DNA from: Rhizophagus irregularis
Taxonomy: Eukaryota
Assembly: GCF_026210795.1 (NCBI RefSeq)
Contig: NC_089435.1
Coordinates: 3,286,001 to 3,350,000, forward strand
Direction of reading: 5' to 3'
Length of the DNA: 64,000 nucleotides
Part shown: piece by piece, positions 24,201-53,661 of the stretch
Layout of the letters: every line of letters begins with the position of its first letter
Numbering within the stretch: the first letter of the stretch is position 1
Notes under the pieces: model-generated
The model's input: only the letters and a program-made list of their open reading frames with translations
Databases searched by the model: none
Told to the model about the DNA's origin: nothing
Position numbers and translations under genes: made by a program

Positions 24201-26318
24201 CTGAAATTTTATGCTTTAGACAAATAGTCACAAATAATAGATTTTATAGAGTGAATAATACTGATAATTACAGACAACAAAAATTGATTGAAAATGGAAA
24301 AGACTGTAAAATATGTGGCAAAATAATTTACAAACAGATATCAATAAATATTGTTGAATTCAAGTTGTGTTTAGATTGTTATAAAATTTCTTCTGGATGG
24401 GTAGAATCAACTTTAACTAAAGAAGTTATTCCAATTCTTTACTTACCTTGGTGGGATGCTTATGGTCAATGTATAACTTGTGATCATGTTCTAGAATTTA
24501 AATCCAATTGTCAAAAATTGTGTTCAAATTGCAAGATTATTTATATTGGATGTAATTATTGTTTGACAACAAATATCATATTTGGAATTACAGACCAATC
24601 TCAATGTAAAAGATGTAAAAGAATAGAAGAAATATCTTTTATCACTATTAATACTAAGGATAATATTGACACTTGCAGAGACATTAATGATGTTATATAT
24701 TATATACAAAATACAGTAGCACTTTACAAGTTTAATTGTAAGATTGCTAATTATATGGATACTATTAATGAAAATATGAATTTATTCGATTTACATGAAT
24801 ATATTAGAAAAATATTTCTTAGTTCTAGAACAAACCAGCTATTAATAAATGAAATTCCACATTCTCAAATTAAAAATTTTAAGTATGTTGCAAAAGGAGG
24901 ATTTGGTATTATTTATAAGGCGACTTGGTTAGGTCAAGATGTTGCTGTAAAAAGATTTTTGAATTCGCAATATATTAGTAAGTATTTTATAAATGAGGTA
25001 ATTGATCTTTACTTTTGGTGCAAACTATTATTTAATACATTTATCTATTTAGTTTTAATAACCACTATATATTTAGGTAAAATCACTTTTCCAATGTTGT
25101 AATTTAGAATATATTGTTGAAGTTTATGGTATTTCGCAAGATATTAAAACAAAAGATTATATGTTAGTAATGAAGTATGCAATTGGTGGAAATTTACATA
25201 ATCATTTGCAAAATAATTTTAATGATATTACATGGAATAAAAAACTACACATTTTATTGAAAATTTCAGAAGGGTCAGTATTTATATAATTATACTTATT
25301 AATAATTGTTGCATTTATAATATTAATTTATTATTTCTTAATTATTCAGACTAAATGTAATTCACAGAAATCATTTTATACATCGAGATTTTCATAGTGG
25401 AAATATATTATTAGCACATCAAACATGGTTGATTTGTGATTTGGGATTATCATTACCTGCAAATTATAGTTTATCAAATAATGAAGTTTATGGAGTAATA
25501 CCTTATGTTGCTCCAGAAATACTTGAGGGTGGTACATTTTCAAAAGAATCAGATATTTATAGTATGGGTATGATCATGTGGGAATTAACAACAGGTTGTA
25601 AACCTTTTGCTAATATTGAACATGATGTTAATCTTATTTATAAAATTATTGATGGAAAACAACCTGAAATTACAAAAGATACTCCTGAATGTTTTTCTAA
25701 TTTAATGAAAAGATGCTGGAATTCTGATTCTACAAAAAGACCTTCAATAACTGAAATTACCGAAAGTTTTAGTAATTGGTTTCATAAGAATAAATATGTA
25801 GAAATATTCAAACAGGCAGAAAAAAAGAGATTAGAATTAATACAATTAAGACAACTTGGTCCTGAATTTAGTGAAACTACTCATTCTGGTGCTATATATA
25901 CAAGTAGACCACTGAGCTATATGATTTCTAATTTATCTTCAATGAGATCATTTAGTATAAAACAAGGTAGGTAAATTACTGGATTATGTAAAATGATGTG
26001 AATTATTAATTTTAAATCAGTTTAATTCTTTTAGAATATATTACTGAAGAACAACACCTTGATATAGACATAAGGTACTGATAATATTTAATTGTGTTGT
26101 ATGAAATTTAGGGGTGTATTTTTCTAATTTTAATACTATATTGTCTTAATCAAATGCAATTTTTATTAGTGAATCAAAAAAACGTAATATTACTAAAGTA
26201 TTGCAAATTGATCAAGGTAAATATTAAGGCTTTATTAAGTTATATGATAATATTGAATAATCAACTAATATATTGATTTATTATAGGAAAGCGCATTAAA
26301 ATTGTTAATAAAAATTGA
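21233..26318 (+). CDS. TKL-type protein kinase with four N-terminal Cys-rich repeats (multi-exon)
   Basis: Exons ~21233-24997, 25077-25273, 25350-~25966 plus short 3' exons (GT-AG). Motifs KGGFG, VAVK, HRDFHSGN, DLG, APE. Four repeats each contain FIPFNNDE...LYLPWWD. Confidence 0.85.
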
Positions 26319-27924: not shown

Positions 27925-30422
27925 ATGAAAGATTCTTCTAACCCTATTATACCAATTATGTTTATTCCTTTTAATAATGATGAGAATGAATGTTGTTATT
28001 GTAAAAGGTCTTATTCTGCAACACTCTTATTTAAACAAAAATATTGCAAGCATTGCCTGAAATTATATATTAAATGTACAGCTAGCAACAATATAGATGT
28101 ACATATAACTACAATAGATAATCAATGTAACAATAGACATAAACCAAGAAGTTTAGATTTTTGTATGCAAAATATCCATGAGTGGTGTAGTAATTGCTCT
28201 GAAATTTTATGCTTTAAGCAAATAGTCACAAATAATAGATTTCATGAAGTAAATAATAAGGATAATTATAGACAACAAAAATTGATTGAAAATGAAAAAG
28301 ACTGTAAATTATGTGGCAAAATAATTATTAAGCAGATATCTGTAAATATTATTGAATTTAAGCTGTGTTTAGATTGTTATAAAATTTCTTCTGGATGGGT
28401 AGAATCAACTTTAACTAAAGAAGTTATTCCAATTCTTTACTTACCTTGGTGGGATGCTTATAATCAATGTATAGCTTGTGATCAGTTTCTAATGCTTAAA
28501 TCTAATTGTCAAAAATTTTGTTCAAATTGCAAGATTATTTATATTGGATGTAATTATTGTTTGACAACAAATATCATATTTGGAATCACAAACCAATCTC
28601 AATGTAAAAGATGTAAAAGAATAGAAGTAGTATCTATCAATATTAATACCAAAGACGATATTGATACTTACAGAGAAATTAATGATGTTTTATATTATAT
28701 ACAGAATACAGTAGCATTTGATAGTTTTAATTGTAAGATTGCTAATTATTTGGACACTATTAATGAAAATTCAAACATATTAAATGTATATGACTATGTT
28801 AGGAAAATATTCCTTAATTCTAGAACAGACCAGCTATCAATAAATGAAATTCCACATACTCAAATTACAAATTTTAAGTATGTTGCAGAAGGAGGATTTG
28901 GTATTATCTATAAGGCGACTTGGTTAGGTCAAGATGTTGCTGTAAAAAGATTTTTGAATTCACATAACATTAGTAAATATTTTTTAAATGAGGTAATTGA
29001 TTTTTTCTATCGGTTTATTATATTTATATGTTTTATTACATTTATTAATTAATTTTGATAATTAATATATATATATATTTAGGTAAAATCACTTTTCCAA
29101 TGTTATAGTTTGGAATATATCATTGAAGTTTATGGTATTTCACAAGATATTGAAACAAAGGATTATATGTTAGTAATGAAGTATGCAAGTGGTGGAAATC
29201 TACATAACCATTTGCATAAGAATTTTAGTGATATTGCATGGAATAAAAAACTACATACTTTATGGAAAATTTTAGAAGGGTCAGTATTTATATTATATAT
29301 TTATTAATTATTGTTTAAATTTATAATATTAATTATTATTACTTATTTATTTCAGCCTAAATGTAATTCATAAAAACCATTTTATACATCGGGATTTTCA
29401 TAGTGGCAATATATTGATAGCACATCAAACATGGTTAATTTGTGATTTAGGATTATCATTACCTGCAAATTATAGTTTATCAAATAATGAAGTATATGGA
29501 GTAATACCCTATATTGCACCAGAAATATTTAAGGGTGGCGCATTTTCAAAGGAATCAGATATTTATAGTATAGGTATGATTATGTGGGAATTAACAACAG
29601 GTTGTAAACCTTTTGCTAATATTGATCATGACGTGGATTTGATTTATAAAATTATTGACGGAAAACAACCTGAAATTACAAAAGATACTCCTGAATGTTT
29701 TGCTAATTTAATGAAAAGATGCTGGGATTCTGATCCTTCAAGAAGACCTTTAATTACTGAAATTACAGAAAGTTTTAATAATTGGTATCACAAGAATAAA
29801 TATGTAGAAATATTCAAACAGGCAGAACAAAAAAGATTAGAATTAATACAATTGAAACAACTCGGTCCTGAATTCAGTGAAAAACCGCATCCTGGTGCTA
29901 TATATACTAGTAGACCACTAAGCTCCATGATTTCTAATTTATCTTCAACTAGATCATTTAGTATAAAACAAGGTACGTATTATTTGCTCCAAAAAAATGA
30001 TTTATGTTTGAAATTAATAATTATTTTTATTATTTTTAGATAATATACTAATTGATGACAGTGGAGGTAAGTTACTGAATTATATAAAATGATATTATGA
30101 ATAGTTAATTTTAAAATCGGATTAAATTCTTATAGAATATAATACCAAGGAACAAGATCTTGATATAGACATAAGGTATTGATATTAAATTATACTGTAA
30201 AAATTTTAAGTGTATTTTCTAATTTTAACATTATTTTATCTTAATCAAATACAATTTTTATTAGTGAATCAAAAAAGCGTAATATTACTAAAGTATTACA
30301 AATTGAAACTTCGGATCAAGGTAAATATTAAGATTTTATTAATTCATAAGGATAATATTAAATAACAGCTAATTCATTGATTTATTGTAGGAAAGCGCAT
30401 TAAAATAGTTAATAGAAATTGA
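27925..30422 (+). CDS. Paralogous TKL kinase with one Cys-rich repeat (partial tandem duplicate)
   Basis: Homology starts mid-repeat at ~27781; first in-frame ATG at 27925; same main intron positions; HRDFHSGN, DLG and APE intact. Confidence 0.75.
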
Positions 30423-40021: not shown

Positions 40022-40938
40022 ATGCAAGATAACAAAGATAAACGACCTTGTAAGAAATTAAAGGTGAACTTTACTTATAAAAAACCTACTGATGATGAGC
40101 TTCGCAATCTTATTGATAGTAGCCGATGTAAAAATACTGATTATTCAACTTCAAATTGGATACGAGCTTTGGAAAAATTTAGAACAGATGTTAATTATCA
40201 AGGATTGATTGAGGAAGTTGATACAAAAGAAGAATTAGAGGATCAGCTTTGTAGATTTGTTTATGCAATGAGAAAAAAAGATGGTTCTGAATATCATGTT
40301 TCTTCAGTTAATAGTTGCATGTTTGCAATAAATAGACATTTGAATAATAAGTCTGTCCTTTCAAAACCTATCAACATTATGGATAAAGATCAATATTACA
40401 AATTATGGCAGATTTTGAATGGTAAAGTTAAGAGTCTTGTGAGTCAAGGTCGTGGGGAGCGTAACGGTGCTGATGGATTTACTGAAGATGATCTTCTTCA
40501 GATTCTTGATCATCCAGCAATGTCTGGCAATGATCCTGCCAGTTTATTATATAGGATCTTTTTTTTTAATGCTATTTTTTTAGGGTTAAGGGGAGGAGAA
40601 CATTTCAATTTGCAGCTTCAAAATTTTATACGAAGAAAAGACAAATATGGTGGATTTGATGTTATCATTTACAAATCAAAAACTAATCAACGCGGTGCCA
40701 ATAATATTGAATCTCAAGGTGATAAGTTATACATTCCCGAAATACCTAGTATCATTGAAATGTATGAAAATTATTTTACCAAACGTCCAACCCAAGCTGA
40801 TCCACATTTTTATTTAAAGCCATGCAATATTAGTGAAGGTAAATATTAAAATTTTTTTTTTTTTTTGACAAATCTAATGTCAAAATTTTTATTATTTTTT
40901 ATTTCATATTATACAGTTGAATTTAATGGACCATGGTA
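40022..40938 (+). pseudogene. Crypton-type tyrosine recombinase, 5' part
   Basis: RKKDGSEY, LGLRGGEH (catalytic Arg), KSKTNQRG; exon 1 at 40022-40838, intron 40839-40916, exon 2 begins VEFNGPW and is then interrupted. Confidence 0.85.
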
Positions 40939-41376
40939 AGTAGTATGAAAACCCCAATTCTAGCTCACCCCCACCATATAATCTAAAATACTACCACTTT
41001 ATATAATCTAATTACCACCATCATATAACTTAATTACCATCATATAATCCACCTACCACTTTTACTATAATTTAACTACCACTTTATATAATCTAATTAC
41101 CACCATCATATAATTTTAATTACCACCATATAATCCACCTACCACTTTTCATATAATCTAGTTACCATCATATAGTTTTATTACCACCATACAATTCTAT
41201 TACCACCACACAATCTGAAAAAATTAACCGAACAAGAAATAGGATTTCAAAGCCAACGGAGCCAAAAAAGGTAAGGAATATTAACCCATCCAGGAAACCA
41301 GCCATGGAGTCAATAGAGCGGAATAGCAAGGCAAGCAATTACCCTTATACCGAGAAAAAATGTAATTGAATAAAAG
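40939..41376 (+). repeat. Left TIR (438 bp)
   Basis: Reverse complement of 52549-52987; one substitution and one 1-bp indel noticed; TACCACCATATAAT-like tandem array at ~40970-41215. Confidence 0.95.
41353..41376 (+). promoter_or_regulatory. Putative element promoter motif, copy 1
   Basis: AGAAAAAATGTAATTGAATAAAAG, 39 nt before ATG 41416. Confidence 0.6.
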
Positions 41377-41415
41377 GTAGGTACCAAGTAACTATACAGA
41401 TAAATAGTACATAAC

Positions 41416-41862
41416 ATGGTATATACCGCAGAAAAGTTAGCAACAATCTTTGGCTGCACAGTCTCTGATCTTATGGCTATCAATAGAGAGATTCTAAAAA
41501 GCCACCAAACCCCGTACGCAGTATCAGTAATCCCCGAACTTGTGGGCCATATCCTGGAATACATTCCAAGTAGAAATTTCGGGACACATCTTCTAGAAGT
41601 CAGCCCAATCTGGAGAGCCGAAGCTGAACGAATACTCTGGAAGCGGCATAAAGAAGCCGAGGAGGCATACGACAAAGCAGTAGAAAAGAAGGAAAAAGCA
41701 AATGATGCTCTTGGTCGATCAGAGGAGGAGGGTAATAGAAATCGTGACCTCCGTGAACTTGAATGGGAGGCATATCAAAAGGCTTGTAAAGAGAGAACAA
41801 ATGCTGCAGTAGAGCATATTATGGTAAAAGAAGCTATTCGCCGTTGTAGCTTACAACTATAA
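41416..41862 (+). CDS. Element-encoded F-box-like / coiled-coil protein
   Basis: IPELVGHILEYI...LLEVSPIWRAEAERILW resembles an F-box; followed by a charged helix. Confidence 0.65.
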   Translation: MVYTAEKLATIFGCTVSDLMAINREILKSHQTPYAVSVIPELVGHILEYIPSRNFGTHLLEVSPIWRAEAERILWKRHKEAEEAYDKAVEKKEKANDALGRSEEEGNRNRDLRELEWEAYQKACKERTNAAVEHIMVKEAIRRCSLQL

Positions 41863-42024
41863 GTTACTTAAGGATAGAGTATACATCAGGACAAGGATGT
41901 GCTCAGTGACTCGGATGACAATCCCGATGACTCAGATGGTGAGGAATAGTTTAGGAAGACAGTACTAATCTGTCTCCCTCTTTTTTTACCCTCATAGGGT
42001 AGGCGAACAATTAATTTTATTTTC

Positions 42025-42048
42025 AGAAAAAATGTAATTGAATAAAAG
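42025..42048 (+). promoter_or_regulatory. Putative element promoter motif, copy 2 (outside the TIR)
   Basis: Identical 24-mer, 22 nt before the PolB ATG. Confidence 0.65.
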
Positions 42049-42070
42049 AGGAGTATAAAAAGTTTACAAG

Positions 42071-45000
42071 ATGTCAACACATCAAGCAAGAAGTGCCCAA
42101 CACAGACAAGTCACCCGATCAGTTCTAGCTGAACTCAAGCAGGTACCTGTCAAGTCCATCCCATATCCCCGCTCAAATGCAAAATTGCAGGAATATGAGG
42201 ATGAGATCCGCCAAATCCGTGAAGCACAAGCGGCGGTAACCAATGAAGAGATAACCCGCATGATGCAAATTGATCCAGACCCACATTATGAGGTAGTCTT
42301 TGAACGTCGTGATCAGGTACGTATAGGAAAGGAGTTAACAGACTCAAACTTTACGGCTGATATTGCTATAGGAACACCTGGAGAGCATGACTATGCTTCA
42401 TTTCTTACAGCACACAGTCAAACAATCCAGAATATTCTTCAGGATGAAAGAAATCGATTGGGATCAATAAAAGTAAGAATTGGAATATTTGCCACAATAA
42501 GACGTTTAGATTCTTACCTTGAGGGATTATTCGGAGATGGTAACTTTAGTGAAGATGATGGAGTAGAGTATATCTACAGATATAACATACCATTTAAAAC
42601 TCGCAATATGCCAATCCTACCATCAACAGATATTAATGGTACATTTAACTTTGCATTAGCAAGAATCATGCAGAAAGTAGAAGACTATGTAAATTACGGA
42701 TCAGGTTGGGAATTCTATCGTGTAGAAAAAATATTTATAGAAATCTCGCAATTTCAACCACCCACAGGAGCAGGACATATACCACTCCCAAAAGATCTTG
42801 CCACGAAAAAGGGAGTAGTAAATCCAGCTAATGATGATGACAAATGCTTCCAGTGGGCAATCCTAGCAGCATTACATCCAGTAGAAAAGAACGCAGAAAG
42901 AATTTCCAAGTATAAGGAGTATGTAAATGAGTTAAACTTTGAAGGTATCGAATTTCCAGTACAAGCTGATGAGGTAATTCTAAGAAGATTTGAGCGACAG
43001 AACCCAACTATTGCCCTCTGCATTTGTGAATGGCGTGACCACCGCCTATGCCCAATATATGTTACCGATAGGGATGATGCAGAGGGCCGTAAAATAATAG
43101 ATTTAGTACTTATCAGTAACGGGGAAAAGCAGCACTATTGCTGGATTAAGAATATGAGCCGTTTAGTAAATAAACGTACAAAAGATGGACATGCAACATT
43201 TGTCTGCCGATGGTGTATCTCCCACTTCACACATCAACAAGAAATCCATAACAAACATGTAGCAATATGTCGAGGATTAAAGAAAACCCCACAAGCAGAC
43301 CGAATGCCATCAGTAAAGAAAGGAAATGATATATATGAATTCAAGAACTGGAAACGCCGCATGCAAGTCCCATATTACTTTGTTGCAGACTTTGAAGCCC
43401 TAGTAATGGACATACCACCCACAGATGAAGACAAAGATAAGAAAACCAAGAAAGTACAAGAGCAAATCCCCTGCTCATACTCGTATATTAAGGTAAGATA
43501 TGATGGTGTAAGTGAATCACAGAAGATATTTACAGGAGAAAATGCAGCACAAAAATTTGTAATCGAAATGCTAAATGAGGCTGAAGCAATCCGTAATGAA
43601 TTCAGAAACCCAATGGAAATGATGCCGTTAACAACCCAAGAGCAAGCAAGTTATGATAATGCAATAAACTGCTGGATATGTCGTAACCCCTTAAATGGAA
43701 ATAAAGTAAGAGACCACTGCCATATTACAGGAAGGTATCGAGGTGCAGCACATAGAGGATGTAATCTTGACTTATCCATAAAACCTCGTGAAATGCATAT
43801 CCCAGTAATCTTTCACAATTTATCAGGATATGATGGACACATAATTATGCAAGGAATTGGTGCAATGGAATGTGAGGATGATATTGATCCTATCCCTTAT
43901 AACATGGAAAAGTATATGGCATTCAAGTTAGGTTCCCTCCGATTTATAGACAGCTTACAATTCATGAAATCAAGTCTCGACAAATTAGCATCCAATCTAG
44001 GTGCAGAAAAATGTAGAGCACAAGAATGTAGTAATCCACAACACTTATGGCGAATTGATGCAGGTAGATGCTTTGCACATCCCGAAAACTTTAAGATAAC
44101 ACGAAGTCAAATACCACCTGAATTACTCGAGATTTATCTTAAAAAAGGTGTCTACCCGTATGAATACATGGATGACTGGAAAAAGTTTGAGAAAACTAGT
44201 TTACCACCTAAAGGAGCATTTTATAGCAAACTTAATGAAACCCACATTAGTGATAAAGAATATGAATATGCACAGTATGTATGGGAAAAAGCAGGATGTA
44301 AAACAATGCAAGATTATCATGTCATTTATCTCAAAACTGACGTCCTCCTACTAGCCGATATATTTCAGAATTTCCGAGAAATGGCCTTGAAAAAATATGG
44401 GTTAGATCCTCTCTGGTATTATTCAACACCAGGCTTCGCATGGGATGCACTATTCTTAATGACAGGGCAAAGATTGGATCTTATAACTGACCAGGACATG
44501 TACATGATGGTAGAACAAGGATTACGTGGTGGAATCTCTATGGTAAGTAAACGATATGCTCGTGCAAATAATCCAGGTATGGGAGAAGGTAAATGGACCG
44601 CAGATAAGCCCAAGTCATCTATTCTATACTTAGACGCAAATAACCTATATGGATGGGCCATGTTGCAATACTTACCTACAGGTAACTTCCACTGGATAAA
44701 GGAGGAAAACGAGTTATCTAACATTCAAAGGCAAATAGAAAGTAATGAAATACCAGACGATTCTTCTGAAGGATATATCCTTAAAGTTAAACTGGAGTAC
44801 CCTCAAGCCCTCCATTCACAACACACAGATTACCCCCTTGCACCAGAACGAATGAAGGTTAAGAAGGAATGGCTTAGTAAAAAGCAGCAGGAAATAATAG
44901 CACGCTCAGGACAACGATACACACCCACAGATAAGCTCATCCCTAACCTATTTGATAAGGATGAATATGTAGTTCATTATAGAAATCTCCAGTATTATGT

Positions 45001-45967
45001 TAGCCAGGGCTTAGTAATCAAGAAGGTCTATGAAGCTATAAAATTCGAGCAGGCTCCATGGATGAAACCATATATAGAATTTAACACCGCCGAACGTGCT
45101 AAGGCTAAGAATGATTTTGAGAAGGACTTCTATAAACTCATGAATAATAGTGTATTTGGTAAAACTATGGAAAATCTCAGGAAACGTGTACGTGTCTCAG
45201 TAGTACAACCCCAAACCCATCCCAAGAAATATAAAAAGCTTACCTCAGATCCTGCATTCAAGGGTCGTAAAATATTCTCAGAAAATCTTGTTGCAATCCA
45301 CCGACGAAAAGTGGAGGTAATGCTTAACCGTCCAACATATGTGGGTATGAGTGTGCTTGACCTCTCGAAGCTCTGTATGTATCAATTCTACTATGATACT
45401 CTTAAAGTACGATATGGTGAAAAAATCCAGTTATGTTATACAGACACAGACTCACTTCTTGTACAAATCCAAACTGAGGATATTAATGCAGACCTCATAG
45501 ATATGGCAGACCAATTTGACTTCAGTGATTATCCTAAAGATCATCCTGTACGAAAAGCATTAGGTGATAAGACTGACATAAATATGAAAATCCCAGGGAA
45601 ATTTAAGGATGAATGTAATGGAGCAGTTATAGCAGAATTTATTGGCCTCCGTCCCAAAATGTATTCCATTCTCAAGGTAGGGGATGAGACCACCAATCCA
45701 AAACATGGTATCCGTAAGGCTAAAGGTGTCCCCTCAAAGGTAGTTAAAAAAGAGTTCCACCATGAGCGGTATAATAAGGCACTCTTTGATCCTAAACATA
45801 ATGATACAGTCACCTTTAGAGCAATCCGATCTGATAGACATGCCATAAATGTTATAGAAATGTCGAAGGTAGGATTATCCCCTATGGATGATAAAAAATG
45901 GATTGCACAAGATAATATCACAATGTATGCACATGGAGATTATAGGATACCACAACTTGAAAATTAA
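42071..45967 (+). CDS. polB: Protein-primed family B DNA polymerase
   Basis: Exonuclease motifs ADFE, FHNLSGYD, YLKTDV; KGVYPYEY; polymerase motifs YLDANNLYG, KLMNNSVFGK, YTDTDS, KAKGV; EndoVII-like DHCHITG...RGAAHRGCN insert; 1298 aa, intact. Confidence 0.97.
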   Translation: MSTHQARSAQHRQVTRSVLAELKQVPVKSIPYPRSNAKLQEYEDEIRQIREAQAAVTNEEITRMMQIDPDPHYEVVFERRDQVRIGKELTDSNFTADIAIGTPGEHDYASFLTAHSQTIQNILQDERNRLGSIKVRIGIFATIRRLDSYLEGLFGDGNFSEDDGVEYIYRYNIPFKTRNMPILPSTDINGTFNFALARIMQKVEDYVNYGSGWEFYRVEKIFIEISQFQPPTGAGHIPLPKDLATKKGVVNPANDDDKCFQWAILAALHPVEKNAERISKYKEYVNELNFEGIEFPVQADEVILRRFERQNPTIALCICEWRDHRLCPIYVTDRDDAEGRKIIDLVLISNGEKQHYCWIKNMSRLVNKRTKDGHATFVCRWCISHFTHQQEIHNKHVAICRGLKKTPQADRMPSVKKGNDIYEFKNWKRRMQVPYYFVADFEALVMDIPPTDEDKDKKTKKVQEQIPCSYSYIKVRYDGVSESQKIFTGENAAQKFVIEMLNEAEAIRNEFRNPMEMMPLTTQEQASYDNAINCWICRNPLNGNKVRDHCHITGRYRGAAHRGCNLDLSIKPREMHIPVIFHNLSGYDGHIIMQGIGAMECEDDIDPIPYNMEKYMAFKLGSLRFIDSLQFMKSSLDKLASNLGAEKCRAQECSNPQHLWRIDAGRCFAHPENFKITRSQIPPELLEIYLKKGVYPYEYMDDWKKFEKTSLPPKGAFYSKLNETHISDKEYEYAQYVWEKAGCKTMQDYHVIYLKTDVLLLADIFQNFREMALKKYGLDPLWYYSTPGFAWDALFLMTGQRLDLITDQDMYMMVEQGLRGGISMVSKRYARANNPGMGEGKWTADKPKSSILYLDANNLYGWAMLQYLPTGNFHWIKEENELSNIQRQIESNEIPDDSSEGYILKVKLEYPQALHSQHTDYPLAPERMKVKKEWLSKKQQEIIARSGQRYTPTDKLIPNLFDKDEYVVHYRNLQYYVSQGLVIKKVYEAIKFEQAPWMKPYIEFNTAERAKAKNDFEKDFYKLMNNSVFGKTMENLRKRVRVSVVQPQTHPKKYKKLTSDPAFKGRKIFSENLVAIHRRKVEVMLNRPTYVGMSVLDLSKLCMYQFYYDTLKVRYGEKIQLCYTDTDSLLVQIQTEDINADLIDMADQFDFSDYPKDHPVRKALGDKTDINMKIPGKFKDECNGAVIAEFIGLRPKMYSILKVGDETTNPKHGIRKAKGVPSKVVKKEFHHERYNKALFDPKHNDTVTFRAIRSDRHAINVIEMSKVGLSPMDDKKWIAQDNITMYAHGDYRIPQLEN

Positions 45968-47022
45968 TATAATATATAAGTAGGAGGCAGCATAGTATCA
46001 GATGGCACAACTAATAATTCTTCTCGAGTAAATATTTTTTTAGGTCCATCAGATAACCTATATATAACCGGCTGCCCATCAACAACTGTGGAAGATTCAA
46101 TTGTATAAACTTTAGTAGACCATATTGGATCAGTTGCACGTCTCCTACCTTGGTAATCTGAGTTATCAAGTAAGTATCTCACAAGAGAACCAGCTGGTAA
46201 ACGTATTTCTTCTGCACCTACAGGTCTATCCTTCCGAATTTTTGAAGGTAGTGCATACACTTGATCTTTCTGGATTGCCTCAACTGGCAACATACCTAGT
46301 AGACGAGTATTAGAATTATTTAGCTCATTCACAATATCAGAAAGGTTCTTAACCCAGGCAGTATTCACACCTTCTGTAAGGAGTTCCTTTGCATCCTGTA
46401 TTTTGAAAAGTCTCTCTGCTAAAGTTCGATTATACCGTTCAACAATAGCCTGACTCTTATGAGTAGTACCCACCCGAATACGCACACCTTTTTCATCCAT
46501 TAATCGGATAACTTCATCCTTAAATTCTGATCCCCCATCTACTTGTAAAACTCTTGGCCAAATAAGCGGGCAGTCTGCTTTACCATAAATCTTTTTAAAT
46601 GCCTTAGCAACACGTGCAGAGCTGCGATCTTCTAGAGGTACTGAAGCTTTATATCGGCTAGCAACATCTACAATATTCAGACAGTATTTATACAGCTTTC
46701 TATCTACAGTATCATAGGGCATATATAAGATATCTGCTTGATGATACATATTTGGTCGAGTAATCTTATTAAAAGAAACCTGTGGAACATACTTGGGTAT
46801 AGGTAAGTGTATTTGCCATATAGCCTGTTTATGCAACCACTCTGTAATATCAGATATATTAAAATCATGGCCTTCAGCTTGCACTTTAGCCCAAAGTTTT
46901 TCAGGAGTACGATAATATCCACATGGATGGTAATAGATTTGTTGAAGGATATAATTTTGTTCGATTTGTTTATTAAATGTAGGGTCTATAAAAATCTGTG
47001 GAACTGGCAATGGAAGATACAT
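45964..47022 (-). CDS. Retroviral-like (rve) DDE integrase, Polinton type
   Basis: HQADIL, VDVASRY, QVDGGSEF, IVERYNRT (D-32-E spacing); first ATG at 47022. Confidence 0.95.
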   Translation of the reverse strand: MYLPLPVPQIFIDPTFNKQIEQNYILQQIYYHPCGYYRTPEKLWAKVQAEGHDFNISDITEWLHKQAIWQIHLPIPKYVPQVSFNKITRPNMYHQADILYMPYDTVDRKLYKYCLNIVDVASRYKASVPLEDRSSARVAKAFKKIYGKADCPLIWPRVLQVDGGSEFKDEVIRLMDEKGVRIRVGTTHKSQAIVERYNRTLAERLFKIQDAKELLTEGVNTAWVKNLSDIVNELNNSNTRLLGMLPVEAIQKDQVYALPSKIRKDRPVGAEEIRLPAGSLVRYLLDNSDYQGRRRATDPIWSTKVYTIESSTVVDGQPVIYRLSDGPKKIFTREELLVVPSDTMLPPTYILY

Positions 47023-49341
47023 CGTTAAAGACACAGATTACAAAGCTTGCACATACATTGCAATCACAAGAGCAATATATAAAATACCTGTATGGTGTAA
47101 TCGAGGGTCATGAATCTGAGATAGAAGAACTTAGGCAAAAAAATGCTGAGTTGCGTGCAAAGCTTAAGAAAGCATTAGAAACGGCATCACTAAAGGAGGA
47201 AGGGCTTCAAGCATTAGAACGTCAGCTGATTGAAGTTGATACTCTAAATATTCAACTCAAAGATCGAATAAAAGAACTTGCTAATAGACAACGGAAAAAC
47301 ATGGCAGCAATTCCTCCTGACCCTATTACAGAAATCTTAAATAATCGGACAACTATAGCAAATAGTGTAGCTGGTATTCACCTTGATCGTACAACTATAG
47401 CAGCACACCCTCATATAAATCATTTATTTAACACTGCAAATGATAGTCTTGATGCCATTATCCGATATGCTAATGAGTTGCGAAATATTATAGAAGATCA
47501 AGATAATATGGAGGATAGACTTGAAGGTTTGTTAGATGATGCACATAACCGTGAAGAATATCTTAGACGAGAACTTAATAATACACGTGCTACTATACTA
47601 AGAACAAGACGTACCTATGAGGATGCATATGCAAATGAAGTGCGTCATCGCCAACATTGGGAAGGCCTTGCACAAAATACTCAGATCCAATTGGCTAACA
47701 TCCAGGCTCAATTTGCTAACAGTCAAATCCAACTAGCTAATGTCCAGAGAGAACGTGATGAGAGTAGAAGAAATGCTCATAGATTATTACAGCGCTATAA
47801 TACTGAAACAGAGCGAAGTAGAAGGCGGGCTAATGGTATCATTCAGCAAGCTCGAGCATGGAGAGGGCAATTTTTAAACTGTCGCAATCATGGTCAAAAT
47901 TTGCAAAATCAGGTCAATAATTTGAATCAACAGATTCTAGCATTACAAAATAACCCTCCGGTAATACAACAACCTATAATGGCAGGATATGCACCTAAAA
48001 AATTTAGAGGAGCATCTGGTGAAGATCCAGAACTTTGGCTTCAAGAATTCAGGCAATGGTGTGAGTCTGCTGGACTTGATCCTGCTGCTAATGCTAGGAC
48101 TCGTGTTAGGATTCATGGGATCTTTGAAACTTTACTTGAAGATGATGCTAGAGATTGGTATGAAAGCGCATATCAAAGGAAAAAATTGGGAATGTGTAAA
48201 TCTTCTGGATAATACTGGTGTGGCCACTCTTGCTGCTTTTAATGCTTTGAATAATGCCGCTATACAGGCTGTAGCGGCGAATCAATTTCGTGGAGGGGCT
48301 GGTGTATTACATGGACAAGCAGCTGCAGATAATACTATTACTGGTGCTAATTTTATACCTGATCATACTGTATGGGATGAAGATTGGTCAATAGTCGAGG
48401 GTCGTCCTACTGATATAGCTGTTAATAATCCTAATGCTAATAATGGAGGTACAATTGTGGCTCCTGGAATACGTATTGGACAATTAATATATCGTTTTAA
48501 GCATTACTTCCCTACTATAACATCTGAAAAGTCTAAGCTTGCATTTAATGCTATTGTTCAGGGTAGTGATACTGTAAGCCGATTCTATTCTAAATTACGA
48601 AGAATGGTTAGACTTGCATATCCAATTCTTCCAGAGGTAAATCAGAATGAATTAGTACGGCAACAGTTCTTAAATGGTCTTTCCAGTGAAAATAAGTTGG
48701 ATGCGCGACGTATTGGTTTAGAAAATTCAGTTGCATCTATTCTGAATAAATTGGAAGAAGTTGAGAAATACAGGACAGATATGCCACCTACTCCTATAGT
48801 TACATACCAGGGTCCAACTTTAGCGGATATTGAGAATCTTATAAATTCTAAAATTCCTATGACTACGGCTAAATCATCTGCAGTACCAGTACCATCTTCT
48901 AGTCCATTTTCAAGTCCTCAAAATGATACATCATTTCAGAGATTACTTGCTTTAGCATATAAATTAGGTCTTCCAAGAGATATCGATATAAGTAAAGTAA
49001 CCCTTAGTGATCTTGAAATATTTATTGATACAGAACTTAATAAAAATTTACCATCTGACCATATTTACCGTGGTAATCAGGTATTTGGTATAAGTTCAGG
49101 TACACGCAAACCAAAGAAATCAAAGAAATGCTCAAGTTGTGGAAAATCTGGTCATACTAAGAGTTCCTGTCCAAAATCTAAGAAGGGAAAGAGGAAAACA
49201 AATTATGCACATGACTCCTCTGATTCCTCTAACTCTTCTGACGCCTCTGACTCCTCTGACTCCTCTGATAGTGATTCAGACTCTGGACATGCCTGCTATG
49301 GATTAAAAAAAAAAGCCTACAGAAAGGAAACGTGTAGATAA
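47010..49341 (+). CDS. Coiled-coil plus Ty3/gypsy-like Gag (capsid and CCHC knuckle), one +1 frameshift near 48163
   Basis: PKKFRGASGEDPELWLQEF, LEDDARDWY, IVQGSDTVSRFYSKL, QFLNGL, CSSCGKSGHTKSSC; removing one A of GAAA joins the two ORFs as DWYEAHIKGKNW. Confidence 0.8.
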
Positions 49342-50215
49342 AAAGCCTACTGATAAGAAAAAATCACAACTTGAAAGGCAGCGTATTATCTTTGAGGTTT
49401 TTATACAACTCTTAAAGCTTCTGGTTCAATCCTTCGTTAATGCTGTACCAAAAGAGACTGTTATATCTGCTTACAATGCTCTGAATGCTGAATTCATTAA
49501 TTATAAAGAACCAGTACTCAGTCAGCTTAAAGGAGAACCCTCGATAAAAACACGTGAAAAAGTTTGGGATAATGTTAAGGACCTTTTCACATCTATCCTT
49601 CATCCTATGATTTCGGTTGTAACTAATAGTATGGCTGCAAATTTAATCCGTAAAAATGATGATGTTATATGTAATAATGACTTATGGTCTTCTATAGCGG
49701 GTATTGGAATTGTTAACCGCAAGTCTGCTAGTGATGTAGTCACTATTAAGACCAAAGTAGTCGCACCTGAGAGTGAAAAATCTTTAGTTATTCCTACGAC
49801 AATTTTTGATACTGGTTCTGATAGTTCTCTGATATCTAACAATATTGTAAAGCGCCTAAATCTTGACGTTGATAGAAGTAATGCTCCTGATCTTAGTGGT
49901 GTTGCAACAAAATCTGATACTATTGGGACAGTATATGGTCTTGGTATTCTTGTATATGATGGGGAGAACTCTAAAAAAATTGAAGATGACTTCATGGTTG
50001 TTAAGAGTGATAAGGACTTTTTATTGCTAGGTGTACCTTGGATTGATCGTGCTAATGTCATTCTAGATTTCCAAAATCGGCAACTGACCATCCCTCTATC
50101 ATCACGTAAAAAAATTACCATTCCAATTTCTCTACATAAACGGAAAACTAACGTGACTTCCTTGCAGATGGATACTATCGACTTAAAAAAAATTCACACT
50201 CTCGAGGAAGATTAA
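49307..50215 (+). CDS. Retropepsin-like aspartic protease ORF
   Basis: IFDTGSDSSLIS and LLLGVPWI motifs; frame is stop-free from the A10 run (49305-49314), ~100 codons before ATG 49607. Confidence 0.88.
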   Translation, partial: KKKPTERKRVDKKPTDKKKSQLERQRIIFEVFIQLLKLLVQSFVNAVPKETVISAYNALNAEFINYKEPVLSQLKGEPSIKTREKVWDNVKDLFTSILHPMISVVTNSMAANLIRKNDDVICNNDLWSSIAGIGIVNRKSASDVVTIKTKVVAPESEKSLVIPTTIFDTGSDSSLISNNIVKRLNLDVDRSNAPDLSGVATKSDTIGTVYGLGILVYDGENSKKIEDDFMVVKSDKDFLLLGVPWIDRANVILDFQNRQLTIPLSSRKKITIPISLHKRKTNVTSLQMDTIDLKKIHTLEED

Positions 50216-50334
50216 CCTGTCATCTATGTGGAGCAAGTTTTGACTTTCCCTCTAAGTTAAAGCGTCATCTTGCTAGGAAAAATCCATGTGTTTCCCAAAC
50301 TTCTGCGGCAATGATGGGCAGTGGCGGGCAGTGA
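50185..50334 (+). CDS. C2HC zinc-finger extension in the -1 frame of the protease ORF
   Basis: After TTA AAA AAA ATT the -1 frame reads KNSHSRGRLTCHLCGASFDFPSKLKRHLARKNPC...*; not in the ORF track. Confidence 0.65.
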   Translation, partial: KKNSHSRGRLTCHLCGASFDFPSKLKRHLARKNPCVSQTSAAMMGSGGQ

Positions 50335-50406
50335 CAGGGCAGTGCCCAAATTTTTTCGGCAGTGACGGGCAGTAACAGGGCAGTGCCCAAATTTTTTCGG
50401 TAGTGA
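50307..50406 (+). repeat. GC-rich GGCAGTG array with duplicated GGGCAGTGCCCAAATTTTTTCGG
   Basis: Direct reading; lies between convergent ORFs. Confidence 0.85.
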
Positions 50407-50422
50407 TTAGCCTTTACAAATA

Positions 50423-50935
50423 TTACATTTGCCATGTTACTCTGATTTCTAGGTCTTTACGGGTTTCTATGAGTTTTTCAATGGCATTTCTATTTTTAAA
50501 ATATCGACTATATCTGATATCTAGCTTTTGAAGGTTTGGTAATATATGCAGGATTTCACTTAGCAAATCTCTAACGTCACCTTTTCCACCATAGTATTGA
50601 TAATCTATTATGCTAAGTTCCTGGATATTGGGACAAGCTTGTAGCATTTTTACAATACAAATGGGCCATAATTTTACTCCATCCATATTAAGCTTTCTGA
50701 TATATTTTCCACATACTGTTCCTGGTTTTGTGAGATGTTTGTACATTTGGAACTCCTTAATATTATAGAGGTTATAAAGGTCTGTTTCACCCCATAGGAG
50801 AGAGTTTGCTACTACAGCCCATTTTCGACACACTAATGCATAATTGCAAAGATAATGCCAACGGGAGTAAGTACCTTCATATGAAGTTTTGAATATCTTT
50901 TCTAAAAGTTCGAAAGGTAAGCTATTGTTTGTCAT
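50423..50935 (-). CDS. Element-encoded F-box / short LRR protein
   Basis: LPFELLEKIF...ALVCRKWAVVANSLLW; CPNIQELSI and LPNLQKLDI. Confidence 0.85.
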   Translation of the reverse strand: MTNNSLPFELLEKIFKTSYEGTYSRWHYLCNYALVCRKWAVVANSLLWGETDLYNLYNIKEFQMYKHLTKPGTVCGKYIRKLNMDGVKLWPICIVKMLQACPNIQELSIIDYQYYGGKGDVRDLLSEILHILPNLQKLDIRYSRYFKNRNAIEKLIETRKDLEIRVTWQM

Positions 50936-51039
50936 GGTATCTCATATGAGATATTGATGAAGAAGTTTTATTTAATTAGATTTTTTCTTAGGATAAAATA
51001 ATTTGAACATTTCTTTTCTATCAATAGAAAAAACCAGAC

Positions 51040-51831
51040 ATGCTTACTTTTAGTGAACTTACTCCATCTCTTACTGTTACTGAATTTAAGATCAATGTTG
51101 AAGGGCTTGATTACACCGTGCTTGGTCATAAGCTTGAACCTACTAAGGATGTTATTGCCATTAATAGCAACTTTATTCATAAAGCTTTTGAGGGTTATGA
51201 ACAGTACTTGTCTAAACCAAAAGGTGAGAGGCGATGCAGACGAAGTACACCTGACAATCCATTAAATAGACGGCGACGTACAGGGGATGGTAGCACTTTT
51301 AATGCATGCATTGAGTTTGTTATCATCTTAGCTGATACTGTACATACTATTCGTTATTTTCCTAAATCTGGTAGTATACAAGTTTTCGGGTCTTTTGATC
51401 CTGTTGCTATCTTCTTACGTTACCTTTCTGAATGTTCCCTACCTGAATTTTCTTCTGTAGAACTTGTGGGTGGAAATAAGGCTCTCCTGCGCAATTATAA
51501 ATTTGTGATTAATATTGGGGGTGATAAGTTTATTAATCTTTCTACCTTAGCATATGCTTTAGAATCTATAGATGGTATTCGTGAGATTCTTCCCTTTCCG
51601 ATAAAGTATATTAAGAATGATGCAGGTGATATTCATTCTAAAATTGCTATAATCTTTACTTCAAAGATTCGGGTACATATCTGGCCTAAATCTGGTAAGG
51701 TTAATATATTTGGCACTAAGACTGAATTGGATGCTGATATGGTTTATAAGTTCTTACAGAAGTTGTTTTCTAATCCGAATGATTTTGGGGATTTTATTTG
51801 TGATGCACCTATTCCAGATTGTGAGAGGTAA
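51040..51831 (+). CDS. TATA-binding-protein-like protein resembling asfarvirus B263R
   Basis: Two TBP-like repeats (IRYFPKSGSIQVFG; VHIWPKSGKVNIFG); AINSNFIH, GDGSTFNACIE and C-terminal PIPD match my recollection of ASFV pB263R. Confidence 0.8.
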   Translation: MLTFSELTPSLTVTEFKINVEGLDYTVLGHKLEPTKDVIAINSNFIHKAFEGYEQYLSKPKGERRCRRSTPDNPLNRRRRTGDGSTFNACIEFVIILADTVHTIRYFPKSGSIQVFGSFDPVAIFLRYLSECSLPEFSSVELVGGNKALLRNYKFVINIGGDKFINLSTLAYALESIDGIREILPFPIKYIKNDAGDIHSKIAIIFTSKIRVHIWPKSGKVNIFGTKTELDADMVYKFLQKLFSNPNDFGDFICDAPIPDCER

Positions 51832-51852
51832 AAAAAATGGTTTCACTGAGAA

Positions 51853-52524
51853 CTAAAAACCCTCTATTTGTAAAATCCAGCAATCGCATTCCTGACTTCT
51901 TGTTGGCATAAGACATTCGTCACATAGAGTTATAGCCAACTCATTTTTTAGTCTATCCAGCTGACTCTCGGTGGTCGGTGCAAGATTCTGATAGTATTCA
52001 TTGAATTCATTCTGCTCTACTTCATCTATGTCTTCATCTGTGTCTTCGTCCATATCTTCATCTCCTTTAATATGGTAGATGCTGAATTCATTTCTATATT
52101 CATCATTAGGATTCGTGAATATTCTTTGTATATTGTAATCTATAATGTTGAATGTTGTAGGTTTCTTTTTTGATAATATTTCTACTAAGTCTAATAATGC
52201 ATATGCTAATTCTTTATCCTCTGAGAAGTTCTTAATGATATCTGAAAATCTTTCATATATTGCCATCTCATCTGGTAGAATAGAATATCTTATTCGTGAT
52301 AAAAGTGATGGATGTATCCATATATCATCACCTTCTAACATCTCATCAAATATTTCTACTAGCTCTTCTAATCCAGATACTAACATACTTTCTTTGCTAA
52401 ATTCGGAATCTAAAGCTTTTAAATATGCTATATCTAAATACCACATTATTTCCTTTACCCATTCTTCTATGTTGAGTTCAAACTGGCCTAGTATACGTCT
52501 TAGTAATGGTCTGTATTGTGACAT
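51853..52524 (-). CDS. Element-encoded hypothetical acidic protein with C-terminal CxxC...CxC
   Basis: 223-aa ORF just inside the right TIR, preceded by the shared motif and TTACAAGATGTCA start context. Confidence 0.7.
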   Translation of the reverse strand: MSQYRPLLRRILGQFELNIEEWVKEIMWYLDIAYLKALDSEFSKESMLVSGLEELVEIFDEMLEGDDIWIHPSLLSRIRYSILPDEMAIYERFSDIIKNFSEDKELAYALLDLVEILSKKKPTTFNIIDYNIQRIFTNPNDEYRNEFSIYHIKGDEDMDEDTDEDIDEVEQNEFNEYYQNLAPTTESQLDRLKNELAITLCDECLMPTRSQECDCWILQIEGF

Positions 52525-52548
52525 CTTGTAAGTCTTTTATATGTGAAT

Positions 52549-52987
52549 CTTTTATTCAATTACATTTTTTCTCGGTATAAGGGAAATTGCTTGCCTTGCT
52601 ATTCCGCTCTATTGACTCCATGGCTGGTTTCCTGGATGGGTTAATATTTCCTTACCTTTTTTGGCTCCGTTGGCTTTGAAATCCTATTTCTTGTTCGGTT
52701 AATTTTTTCAGATTGTGTGGTGGTAATAGAATTGTATGGTGGTAATAAAACTATATGATGGTAACTAGATTATATGAAAAGTGGTAGGTGGATTATATGG
52801 TGGTAATTAAAATTATATGATGGTGGTAATTAGATTATATAAAGTGGTAGTTAAATTATAGTAAAAGTGGTAGGTGGATTATATGATGGTAATTAAGTTA
52901 TATGATGGTGGTAATTAGATTATATAAAGTGGTAGTATTTTAGATTATATGGTGGGGGTGAGCTAGAATTGGGGTTTTCATACTACT
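52549..52987 (-). repeat. Right TIR (439 bp), including promoter motif copy 3 at 52549-52572
   Basis: Reverse complement of the left TIR. Confidence 0.95.
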
Positions 52988-53661
52988 ATGGTATCATAAG
53001 CAACATGTGTCTGAAAAAGAAATTAAATCCTTTATGAAAAAAATTGTTACCTTAACCGGAATTAACGTGGATGATCGCAAAATTAGTAACCATTCAGGTC
53101 GGAAAATGCTAGTACAAATATTAAAGCGATGAGGATTTTCAAATTCTGAATGTATGGCAAGTACACGACATAAGTCTGAGCAAGGGCTTGCTAGATATGA
53201 GCGTCCAGAAACTGAAATTCAACGAAATAATGCTTTTAACCTTGTTGAAGCATTTGGTTTTAATAAAAATAATATTCGATCAGGTAAAAATTTGAAATTT
53301 TTAATCATTAATAAATGACCTGCATTCTAATTTTCTTCTATAGAAGAATCAATGGAACAATCAACTTTATCAACAGACAATTTCGTTGTTGCAAAATCAT
53401 TGCTTAATGGTAATATTCTAAAATTTTATTCTATTTTTTGATAATCAATTTAACAAAATTGAACTTTTTCTAGATAATCGTGAAGTTATTAATTCGGCAA
53501 ACAGTAATATTAAAGTTACAAGAAGGCCATTAAAAGATTTAAATGAAATTCAAGAAAATAAAAGTCAAAATTTGGAAGAATTAGTTTCGAAATTAACAGC
53601 TGATAAAGTTTTTATCAATTCTGTTATTATTTTCAATAATAATCCTAATAGCCATAATTAA
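52988..53661 (+). pseudogene. Crypton-type tyrosine recombinase, 3' part
   Basis: Continues in frame WYHKQHV...ISNHSGRK (HxxR)...TRHKS...LARYER (catalytic Tyr); in-frame TGA at 53130-53132; two further GT-AG introns. Confidence 0.85.

Follow-up and report, generated by a model that had tools for sequence, protein, structure and literature searches.

Why does a mobile element in the genome of Rhizophagus irregularis carry a TBP gene that resembles B263R of ASFV, and which transcription machinery would such a protein serve? The gene is an intronless ORF of 263 aa on the plus strand (51040..51831) of the window, by which we mean the whole 64,000-nt stretch of DNA analysed here. From the sequence alone, the original prediction had taken it for a B263R-type rather than a fungal-type TBP that had been captured from a fungal giant virus, which suggested a satellite- or virophage-like relationship or a use in redirecting transcription. 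In the literature searched, we came across no report of a Polinton, virophage or transpoviron that itself carries a basal transcription factor of giant-virus type.

The element family has been described before. The GenBank TPA entry 'Rhizophagus glomeromycete fungus MELD virus' (taxid 2707321) belongs to it, and a single residue separates DAC81703.1 from the TBP of the window. The legend of Fig. 5 in Starrett et al. 2021 names 'TBP' and 'Matrix/Capsid/NC/Pro' (PMC8502044), labels that, we infer, apply to this element; the same paper mentions an adintovirus-like PolB from Rhizophagus, and its account of the MELD virus, in the portion at hand, gives the TBP without origin or function and without promoter, selection or helper analysis. 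A legend in a preprint (10.1101/697771) terms TBP and F-box 'homologs of host proteins', a 2022 preprint (10.1101/2022.05.25.493380) used, in the part available, the polymerase of the element only, and the Polintons of R. irregularis are credited to 2006 work (PMC11296320). Already on record, then, were the element and the label 'TBP' as such; new here are the asfuvirus affinity of the TBP, its conservation and the promoter motif. No literature linking this TBP to asfuviruses was found, and subscription papers and supplements may contain it.

A Polinton-type element without jelly-roll capsid genes

Polintons are recognized by a family-B DNA polymerase (PolB), an rve integrase, long terminal inverted repeats (TIRs) starting AGTAGT and a 6-bp target-site duplication (TSD). 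The element in the window has TIRs, AG ends, a 6-bp TSD, PolB and the rve integrase. It covers 12,049 bp (40939..52987), with a GC content of about 0.36-0.39 compared with 0.20-0.35 in the flanks, and lies between two copies of the TSD ATGGTA (40933..40938 and 52988..52993, both given on the plus strand). The left TIR (40939..41376, plus strand) begins AGTAGT, contains internal tandem repeats of 19, 42 and 86 nt and ends in a promoter-like motif; the right TIR (52549..52987, minus strand) is complementary to it (340 nt at 100% and 113 nt at 95%), and each TIR measures about 440 bp. Such perfect TIRs together with the TSD imply recent transposition.

The insertion splits a tyrosine-recombinase gene (40022..53260, plus strand; 5' exon 40022-40849; DUF3504, E 8e-7) that we take to be Crypton-like, and its C-terminal part resumes after 52993 and runs to 53260 with an in-frame stop; the target was itself the gene of a mobile-type enzyme. 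Further out, the host flank contains a pair of similar F-box genes and two ORFs that match DUF5817 weakly (13505-14971, 16374-17843, 21233-25102 and 27925-29052).

At the left end of the element, orf148 (41416..41862, plus strand) has no Pfam match and falls in a cluster that includes DAC81708.1, an entry under the name of the MELD virus. It is followed by polB (42071..45967, plus strand), a Polinton-type family-B DNA polymerase gene of 1298 codons with an endonuclease-VII-like insert. Endonuclease VII was its sole match in Pfam and PHROGs, with no library match to the polymerase domain, and all six motifs, Exo I-III and Pol A-C, were located with patterns that we presume to be the canonical ones; priming by this PolB is presumably by protein. 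The rve (DDE) integrase gene lies on the minus strand (45964..47022; 352 aa; PF00665, E 8e-9), as does an F-box gene (50423..50935; 170 aa; PF12937, E 1.5e-6) that stands head to head with the TBP gene. Beyond the latter, orf223 (51853..52524, minus strand) encodes an acidic protein with a C-terminal four-cysteine motif, for which we found no family in Pfam or PHROGs and no Atlas match above 0.77; its cluster includes DAC81702.1. Between the protease and F-box genes lies a GC-rich 41-bp tandem repeat of 2.2 copies (50317-50406). Genes for a jelly-roll major or minor capsid protein, an A32/FtsK packaging ATPase or an adenain are absent from the element, because its largest intergenic gap is 477 bp and its long ORFs are either assigned or shorter than 225 aa. 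By gene content, the element does not belong with the virion-forming polintoviruses or adintoviruses, which are characterized by these genes.

The remaining two genes are of retroviral appearance. The Gag-like gene (47010..49341, plus strand) would encode a coiled coil, a capsid-like helical part and a CCHC knuckle; its matches to Retrotrans_gag (E 0.012-0.03) and zf-CCHC (E 0.013) both fall short of the cut-off, and the capsid region, folded alone, gave a model of pLDDT 38 that was discarded. It is broken by a single frameshift near 48160-48180 in the window and is whole, with 743-750 aa, in the related loci L006 and L008. Its end is overlapped at an A-run by the frame of a retropepsin-type aspartic protease with a DTG motif (49300..50215, plus strand; Pfam aspartyl protease families, E 2e-4 to 6e-4). 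The protease is in the -1 frame in two of four junctions (L006 and L019) and in the +1 frame in the other two (the window and L008), where the A-run is one base shorter. The arrangement looks like a programmed -1 frameshift, obscured by homopolymer variation. The first ATGs of gag and the integrase gene overlap head to head at 47010-47022 and leave no intergenic promoter, in a layout that recurs almost unchanged in L006 and L008. The peptide CYGLKKK lies over a long A-run at all four gag-protease junctions (window 49280-49345; L006 3149; L008 4448; L019 428). Shortened protease ORFs (L027 138-596; L032 109-567) have a TBP-type promoter motif of their own, as if the promoter had been duplicated ahead of them.

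The TBP is predicted to form a two-repeat saddle

All eight motifs quoted in the original prediction are found in the ORF, at residues 41, 52, 78, 106, 152, 185, 219 and 257. The two TBP repeats that it had seen are clear in the predicted structure and weak in the sequence, where a single 15-aa stretch is repeated with a score of 44, which 3 of 1000 shuffles reach. The AlphaFold2 model, computed from an alignment of 46 homologues, has a pLDDT of 89.5 and superimposes on Sulfolobus TBP over 178 residues (Z 13.6, rmsd 3.0 A, VIA-align); the top five VIA-align rows are all TBP-containing chains, and the leading rows of a Foldseek search against the PDB are TBPs. On the level of the structural model, the two-repeat TBP saddle fold of the ORF is confirmed. 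Sequence searches gave no match in Pfam (including PF00352), PHROGs, PDB sequences or phage tblastn, and even at E up to 10 the PDB sequence search returned no TBP, that of yeast included. The ESM Atlas neighbours of the ORF are Nucleocytoviricota clusters (0.93-0.96).

For a comparison of the DNA-contacting face, we used as ASFV reference the 263-aa ORF of locus L034, which agrees at 45 of 45 pB263R residues taken from PMC5825884 and is therefore ASFV pB263R; two further ASFV loci (L033 and L035) agree at 44 of these 45 residues. The set includes three aromatics that were proposed to intercalate (PMC5825884). The element has F87, F107 and W215 at the positions of ASFV F90, F110 and F221, so that three putative minor-groove aromatics are present as in pB263R, and N42, N44 and N152 at those of N52, N54 and N160. 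In the 46-row alignment, F87 and N152 are found in 46 of 46 rows, position 107 is F or Y in 46 of 46, and W215 is kept in 42 of 46, the remaining four being gaps. Both proteins also have a basic insert, predicted to be disordered, at about residues 59-82 of the element TBP.

The TBP is of the B263R type

Is this protein closer to the TBPs of asfuviruses or to those of cells? The element TBP and pB263R align end to end with 31% identity over 240 aa and a score of 235, against a maximum of 37 in 500 shuffles, and the collinearity put forward in the original prediction is borne out by this alignment. A profile of the element-family TBPs gives 129-132 bits for the three ASFV loci, 25-114 bits for 15 other viral loci and 2.7 bits or less for 19 cellular-type TBPs. 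In a Foldseek search of a viral structure library, the B263R homolog of Abalone asfa-like virus ranks second (E 1.2e-17, TM 0.76) and is the best named match, as rank 1 carries no name; named mimivirid-type TBPs follow from 8e-11 on. In the PDB search, the best cellular TBP reaches E 3.6e-7 with TM 0.45, and the cellular group as a whole has TM values of 0.45-0.50 and 11-16% identity.

The viral TBP loci had been retrieved with a profile built from distant matches; of the non-ASFV loci tested, all ten have at least two neighbours in common with the ASFV block, and therefore the designation 'B263R-type' holds. An NCLDV capsid gene is present in four of these ten. The original assignment to the B263R type rather than the fungal type is upheld by the profile scores, the Foldseek ranking, the pB263R alignment and a branch of support 100 that sets the element off from cellular-type TBPs, and we regard the membership of the element TBP in this type as virtually certain. 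A cellular TBP, fungal or archaeal, was rejected as a candidate: PF00352 does not match, and the same branch, in a tree without fungal sequences, parts the cellular-type rows from the element. Two further observations concern the viral side: four viral contigs (L182-L185) encode eukaryote-type TBPs that by profile are unrelated to the B263R type, and NCBI assigns an asfuvirus-type TBP, P0283, to a Patescibacteria MAG, into which a giant-virus contig was probably mis-binned.

Origin and direction of transfer

The trees were built throughout with quick or FastTree methods from 156 of 202 TBP rows kept after a 55% identity filter and from hand-picked subsets of 67, 38 and 41 rows. The element TBPs form a single clade (support 99), in which P0212, P0063, P0167, P0173 and P0175 owe their element label to tree position and not to gene context. 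The closest rows outside it, P0185 and P0217, both come from short contigs of unassigned nature. When the tree is rooted on distant viral rows, the element clade falls within a clade with ASFV (support 99). As a direct sister of the element TBP, ASFV is rejected (AU test, p 0.006), and a basal position of the element clade among the viral rows is compatible with the data (AU test, p 0.32). The stem of the element clade is long (0.47-0.6 changes per site). With eight archaeal and two eukaryote-type TBPs as outgroup, the element clade branches off as sister to the viral rows as a whole with a support of 75, a root position that rests on a poor alignment in which the first repeat is visibly misaligned to the cellular rows; the branch of support 100 between the cellular-type TBPs and the element and viral rows measures about 2 changes per site in this tree without fungal TBP.

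RNA polymerase is established for ASFV among these viruses. In viruses, the B263R-type TBP gene sits within a conserved transcription block, whereas the family of elements, a narrow one, is devoid of RNA polymerase, and for this reason we consider, by parsimony, a transfer of the gene from virus to element quite probable. Of the proposed capture from a giant virus, the event itself is judged likely; ASFV as the nearest lineage is rejected, and the direction is without proof from the trees.

Could the gene instead be a relic passenger, or descend from a cellular TBP or from an ancient element lineage independent of asfuviruses? The root on the element branch (support 75, no fungal TBP in the tree) and the TBP match that is split in 5 of 32 soil loci would speak for this, but we hold it very improbable in view of purifying selection in 66 of 66 pairs, the fixed place of the gene after the protease gene across 43-95% identity, the long branch to the cellular-type TBPs with its misaligned first repeat, yeast TBP giving no match at E up to 10 and the viral gene lying within a conserved transcription block.

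Conservation of the TBP gene across element copies

Is the TBP a constant part of these elements? The original prediction had asked for the gene in sibling copies, and it is indeed carried by them: near-identical copies in R. irregularis give a cluster of 56 TBPs (the ten compared differ at 1-13 aa), relatives occur in Entrophospora, and soil metagenomes contain TBP loci of 43-95% identity. A second element gene adjoins the TBP in 27 of 32 such soil loci, and the protease gene lies upstream of it in 12 of 32, reaching down to 43% identity. The order rve-gag-pro-F-box-TBP is found in two soil loci, one of which also has polB. In divergent relatives, the TBP is retained and different F-box and ankyrin genes take the place of the accessory genes. 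A correlation of TBP and protease identity (rho 0.88, 11 of 12 loci) is non-independent and was given no weight. Scans of IMG/VR with the element TBP profile, the protease and PolB gave no element relative.

Among 12 TBP sequences, all 66 pairs have a dN/dS of 0.17-0.61, with values of 0.18-0.24 for the three pairs in which saturation is lowest. Judged from these comparisons, we show that the TBP is a conserved core gene under purifying selection in capsid-less Gag-protease Polintons of Glomeromycota.

Several features of the soil relatives were seen in passing. A divergent subfamily (L013-L021 and L027; about 45% TBP identity, GC 0.30) has a run of small genes on the minus strand, with F-box and ankyrin genes among them; several genes of this run are preceded by a second upstream pattern (T-run, TATA, GGTAAG); one member, L020, has a repeat-rich terminal arm of roughly 1.2 kb that closes with ACTACT. 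In L026 (1-5900), a truncated copy adjoins intron-split, transposase-like host DNA, presumably hAT, which suggests that the soil relatives are integrated in fungal-type genomes.

An early-promoter-like motif of giant-virus type

We learnt a consensus, AAAWTTGAAT, de novo from 159 viral upstream regions. When 46 element upstream regions were analysed independently, their top 6-mers were TGAATA, TTGAAT, TTTGAA and ATTTGA, and the resulting AAWTTGAAY upstream of element genes coincides with the motif learnt from the asfuvirus-like contigs. The 90th percentile of the host (6.66) is passed by 14 of 46 element regions and by 5 of 46 reverse complements, where the 14 matches are non-independent (four gene families, six being TBP orthologues) and some of the 46 regions belong to spurious ORFs on the antisense strand or to wrongly placed starts; L026, mostly host DNA, was excluded. 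Positions in the element regions cluster at -24 to -45. Since a regular-expression form of the motif was chosen after the upstream sequences had been viewed, our conclusions rely on the de novo test.

In the window, a putative early-promoter-like motif, ATAATTTGAAC (50998..51008, plus strand), lies 42 nt ahead of the TBP ATG and scores 8.8 with a matrix from viral contigs alone, a value equalled by 2.4% of random host windows; both the motif and the genome around it are AT-rich. Most sibling lineages retain the motif at -28 to -39, and an early-type motif also precedes the TBP gene in most related viral loci. Upstream of polB, TGTAATTGAAT (42033..42043, plus strand) stands 38 nt before the ATG with a score of 6.5, and further copies of this polB-type motif are found at 41361-41371 (plus strand) and 52554-52564 (minus strand). 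Of the seven genes of the window, the TBP gene alone passes the threshold, polB, orf148 and orf223 lie just below it, and the F-box gene fails. The 24-bp motif of the original prediction was recovered ahead of orf148, polB and orf223, with a variant ahead of the F-box gene. No early motif precedes rve or gag in the window, and we found no conserved late motif ahead of either.

How do these motifs relate to known viruses? The early motif of pacmanvirus and its transpoviron is AAAATTGA (PMC11788076). For ASFV, recognition of the early motif is ascribed to the early factor and not to TBP, and B263R is an early gene whose product was proposed to be a partner of TFIIB at late promoters (PMC7163114); the TBP/TFIIB-like pair of poxviruses shows little sequence specificity in its binding to AT-rich DNA (PMC12917281). 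Endogenous asfarvirus-related DNA, to which the original prediction had appealed, is on record for the host species as an Asfarviridae-related region that carries RNA polymerase genes and occurs in one of five strains (PMC10640383); the parts of that paper at hand contain no mention of TBP or Polintons. In this decayed endogenous virus region of Rhizophagus, the motif gave 8 and 15 text matches where about 8 are expected by our own arithmetic, and four exact element probes of 20-22 nt gave no match there, although line breaks mask some matches. The suggested satellite- or virophage-like link is strengthened by the giant-virus early-promoter-like motif and weakened by the fact that no helper virus was seen.

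The element is nearly silent in three poly(A) runs

In three poly(A) runs, of which X21 and X23 are one sample of unspecified strain, 91-131 of 11 million reads fall on 11 kb of the element, without a peak and with at most 1.8x coverage of the TBP gene; a fourth run has 12 reads on the element. The flank control is confounded by paralogues, as 63-90% of the aligned reads continue unlike the window, and flank bins of 30-70x show merely that the libraries contain R. irregularis RNA. Four read joints over rve and gag have minus-strand GT-AG ends, which shows that host Pol II transcribes copies at a low level. The reads skip 46293-46369, 46703-46793, 47321-47381 and 47469-47615, as spliced host transcripts that run sense through the integrase gene and antisense through gag. 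The near-silence of the element fits dependence on a helper and also ordinary transposon silencing.

A parasite woken by an asfuvirus?

The reading that we prefer, and hold to be about as likely as not, is that the element is an integrated parasite: a helper asfuvirus would transcribe it, and the TBP of the element would serve the late expression of Gag and integrase. The element would sit integrated and quiet in the host genome until infection by the helper, whose RNA polymerase and early factor would then recognize the AAWTTGAAY promoters of an early set comprising polB, the TBP gene and the accessory F-box genes. The newly made TBP would bend AT-rich DNA through its retained aromatic residues and, together with the TFIIB of the helper, steer the viral polymerase to genes free of the early motif, namely gag-pro and the integrase gene; this late role is modelled on the proposal for pB263R at ASFV late genes. 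Taken separately, transcription of the element by the helper RNA polymerase appears somewhat more probable than its opposite, and for the action of the element TBP on late genes the chances seem balanced. The fuller picture of a three-way chimera, with replication and integration genes of a Polinton, a retroviral-type Gag-protease particle and the TBP of an asfuvirus, dormant in the genomes of arbuscular mycorrhizal fungi and woken by an asfuvirus through viral early promoters while its own TBP redirects the helper polymerase to late genes, is put forward tentatively and stands a little below an even chance.

Several observations speak against this helper-dependent reading. No helper virus was seen, and queries with the TBP, protease and PolB found no element relatives among IMG/VR contigs; donor and direction are not fixed by the trees, and the motif is barely above chance in the endogenous virus region. 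A nuclear copy would need to excise and then reach a cytoplasmic factory, a TFIIB gene is absent from the element, and we found no conserved late motif before gag or rve. Low RNA levels are expected of any silenced transposon, and host Pol II reads the copies at a low level.

The best surviving alternative, which we nevertheless hold unlikely, is an autonomous nuclear transposon that has repurposed an asfuvirus-derived TBP either to bind the AT-rich motif or the TIR repeats and so recruit host Pol II, or to bend DNA for replication, integration or packaging. The many near-identical copies, the recent transposition implied by perfect TIRs and TSD, the spliced minus-strand reads over rve, the lack of relatives among viral contigs and the presence of the endogenous virus in one of five strains (PMC10640383) would all be in line with it. 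However, the motif resembles a giant-virus early motif, which in ASFV is credited to the early factor and not to TBP (PMC7163114), the protein is 11-16% identical to cellular TBPs, and the three poly(A) runs contain no stranded expression peak.

Alternatively, the TBP could be a decoy: the helper would transcribe the element, and the TBP would compete for TFIIB or late promoters, curb the virus and protect the fungus in the manner of an endogenous virophage. This draws on the same origin and promoter evidence as the helper-dependent reading and would supply the reason that a second TBP needs where the helper already brings one; the long stem branch (0.47-0.6 changes per site) and the replacement of the third Phe by W would agree with it as well. 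Yet the strong conservation of the DNA-face residues fits a working factor equally well and direct evidence of inhibition is lacking, so that we rate a decoy as distinctly improbable.

If the helper-dependent reading is true, the element family is a sentinel of a still unisolated dsDNA virus of Glomeromycota, a group whose asfuvirus, in the parts of PMC10640383 at hand, is known from endogenous DNA only. That a recently mobile multicopy element keeps a TBP of asfuvirus type under selection together with asfuvirus-type promoter motifs speaks for a long-standing association with these viruses, which would span at least two genera, Rhizophagus and Entrophospora. Induction of the element, or episomes of it, would be a marker in the search for the Glomeromycota asfuvirus, and the element would provide a small, non-pathogenic model for the proposed role of B263R-type TBPs in late transcription.

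Comparison with known systems

With ASFV, the element shares a TBP that equals pB263R in length (263 aa) and has the same insert and DNA-face residues; it differs in its size of 12 kb, in the absence of RNA polymerase, TFIIB and early factor and in the replacement of F221 by W. PolB, the rve integrase, long AGTAGT TIRs and the 6-bp TSD are common to Polintons/Mavericks and the element, which in place of jelly-roll capsids, packaging ATPase and adenain has Gag, protease and TBP. A putative CCHC knuckle and an aspartic protease are what this part of the element would share with the Gag-Pro of LTR retroelements; its capsid region gave a model of pLDDT 38, and the protease is in the -1 frame in two of four junctions. 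With transpovirons and with integrating virophages such as mavirus, the element has in common a small linear DNA bounded by TIRs and early-promoter-like motifs of giant-virus type. As for differences, it integrates in a cell genome, encodes the polymerase itself and carries a Gag-like protein where a jelly-roll capsid protein would be expected. That Asfarviridae can host such parasites is evident from pltv, the pacmanvirus transpoviron (PMC11788076), which has 7 kb and a helicase, and for which integrase, PolB and TBP go unmentioned in the part of that paper at hand; the element of R. irregularis has all three.
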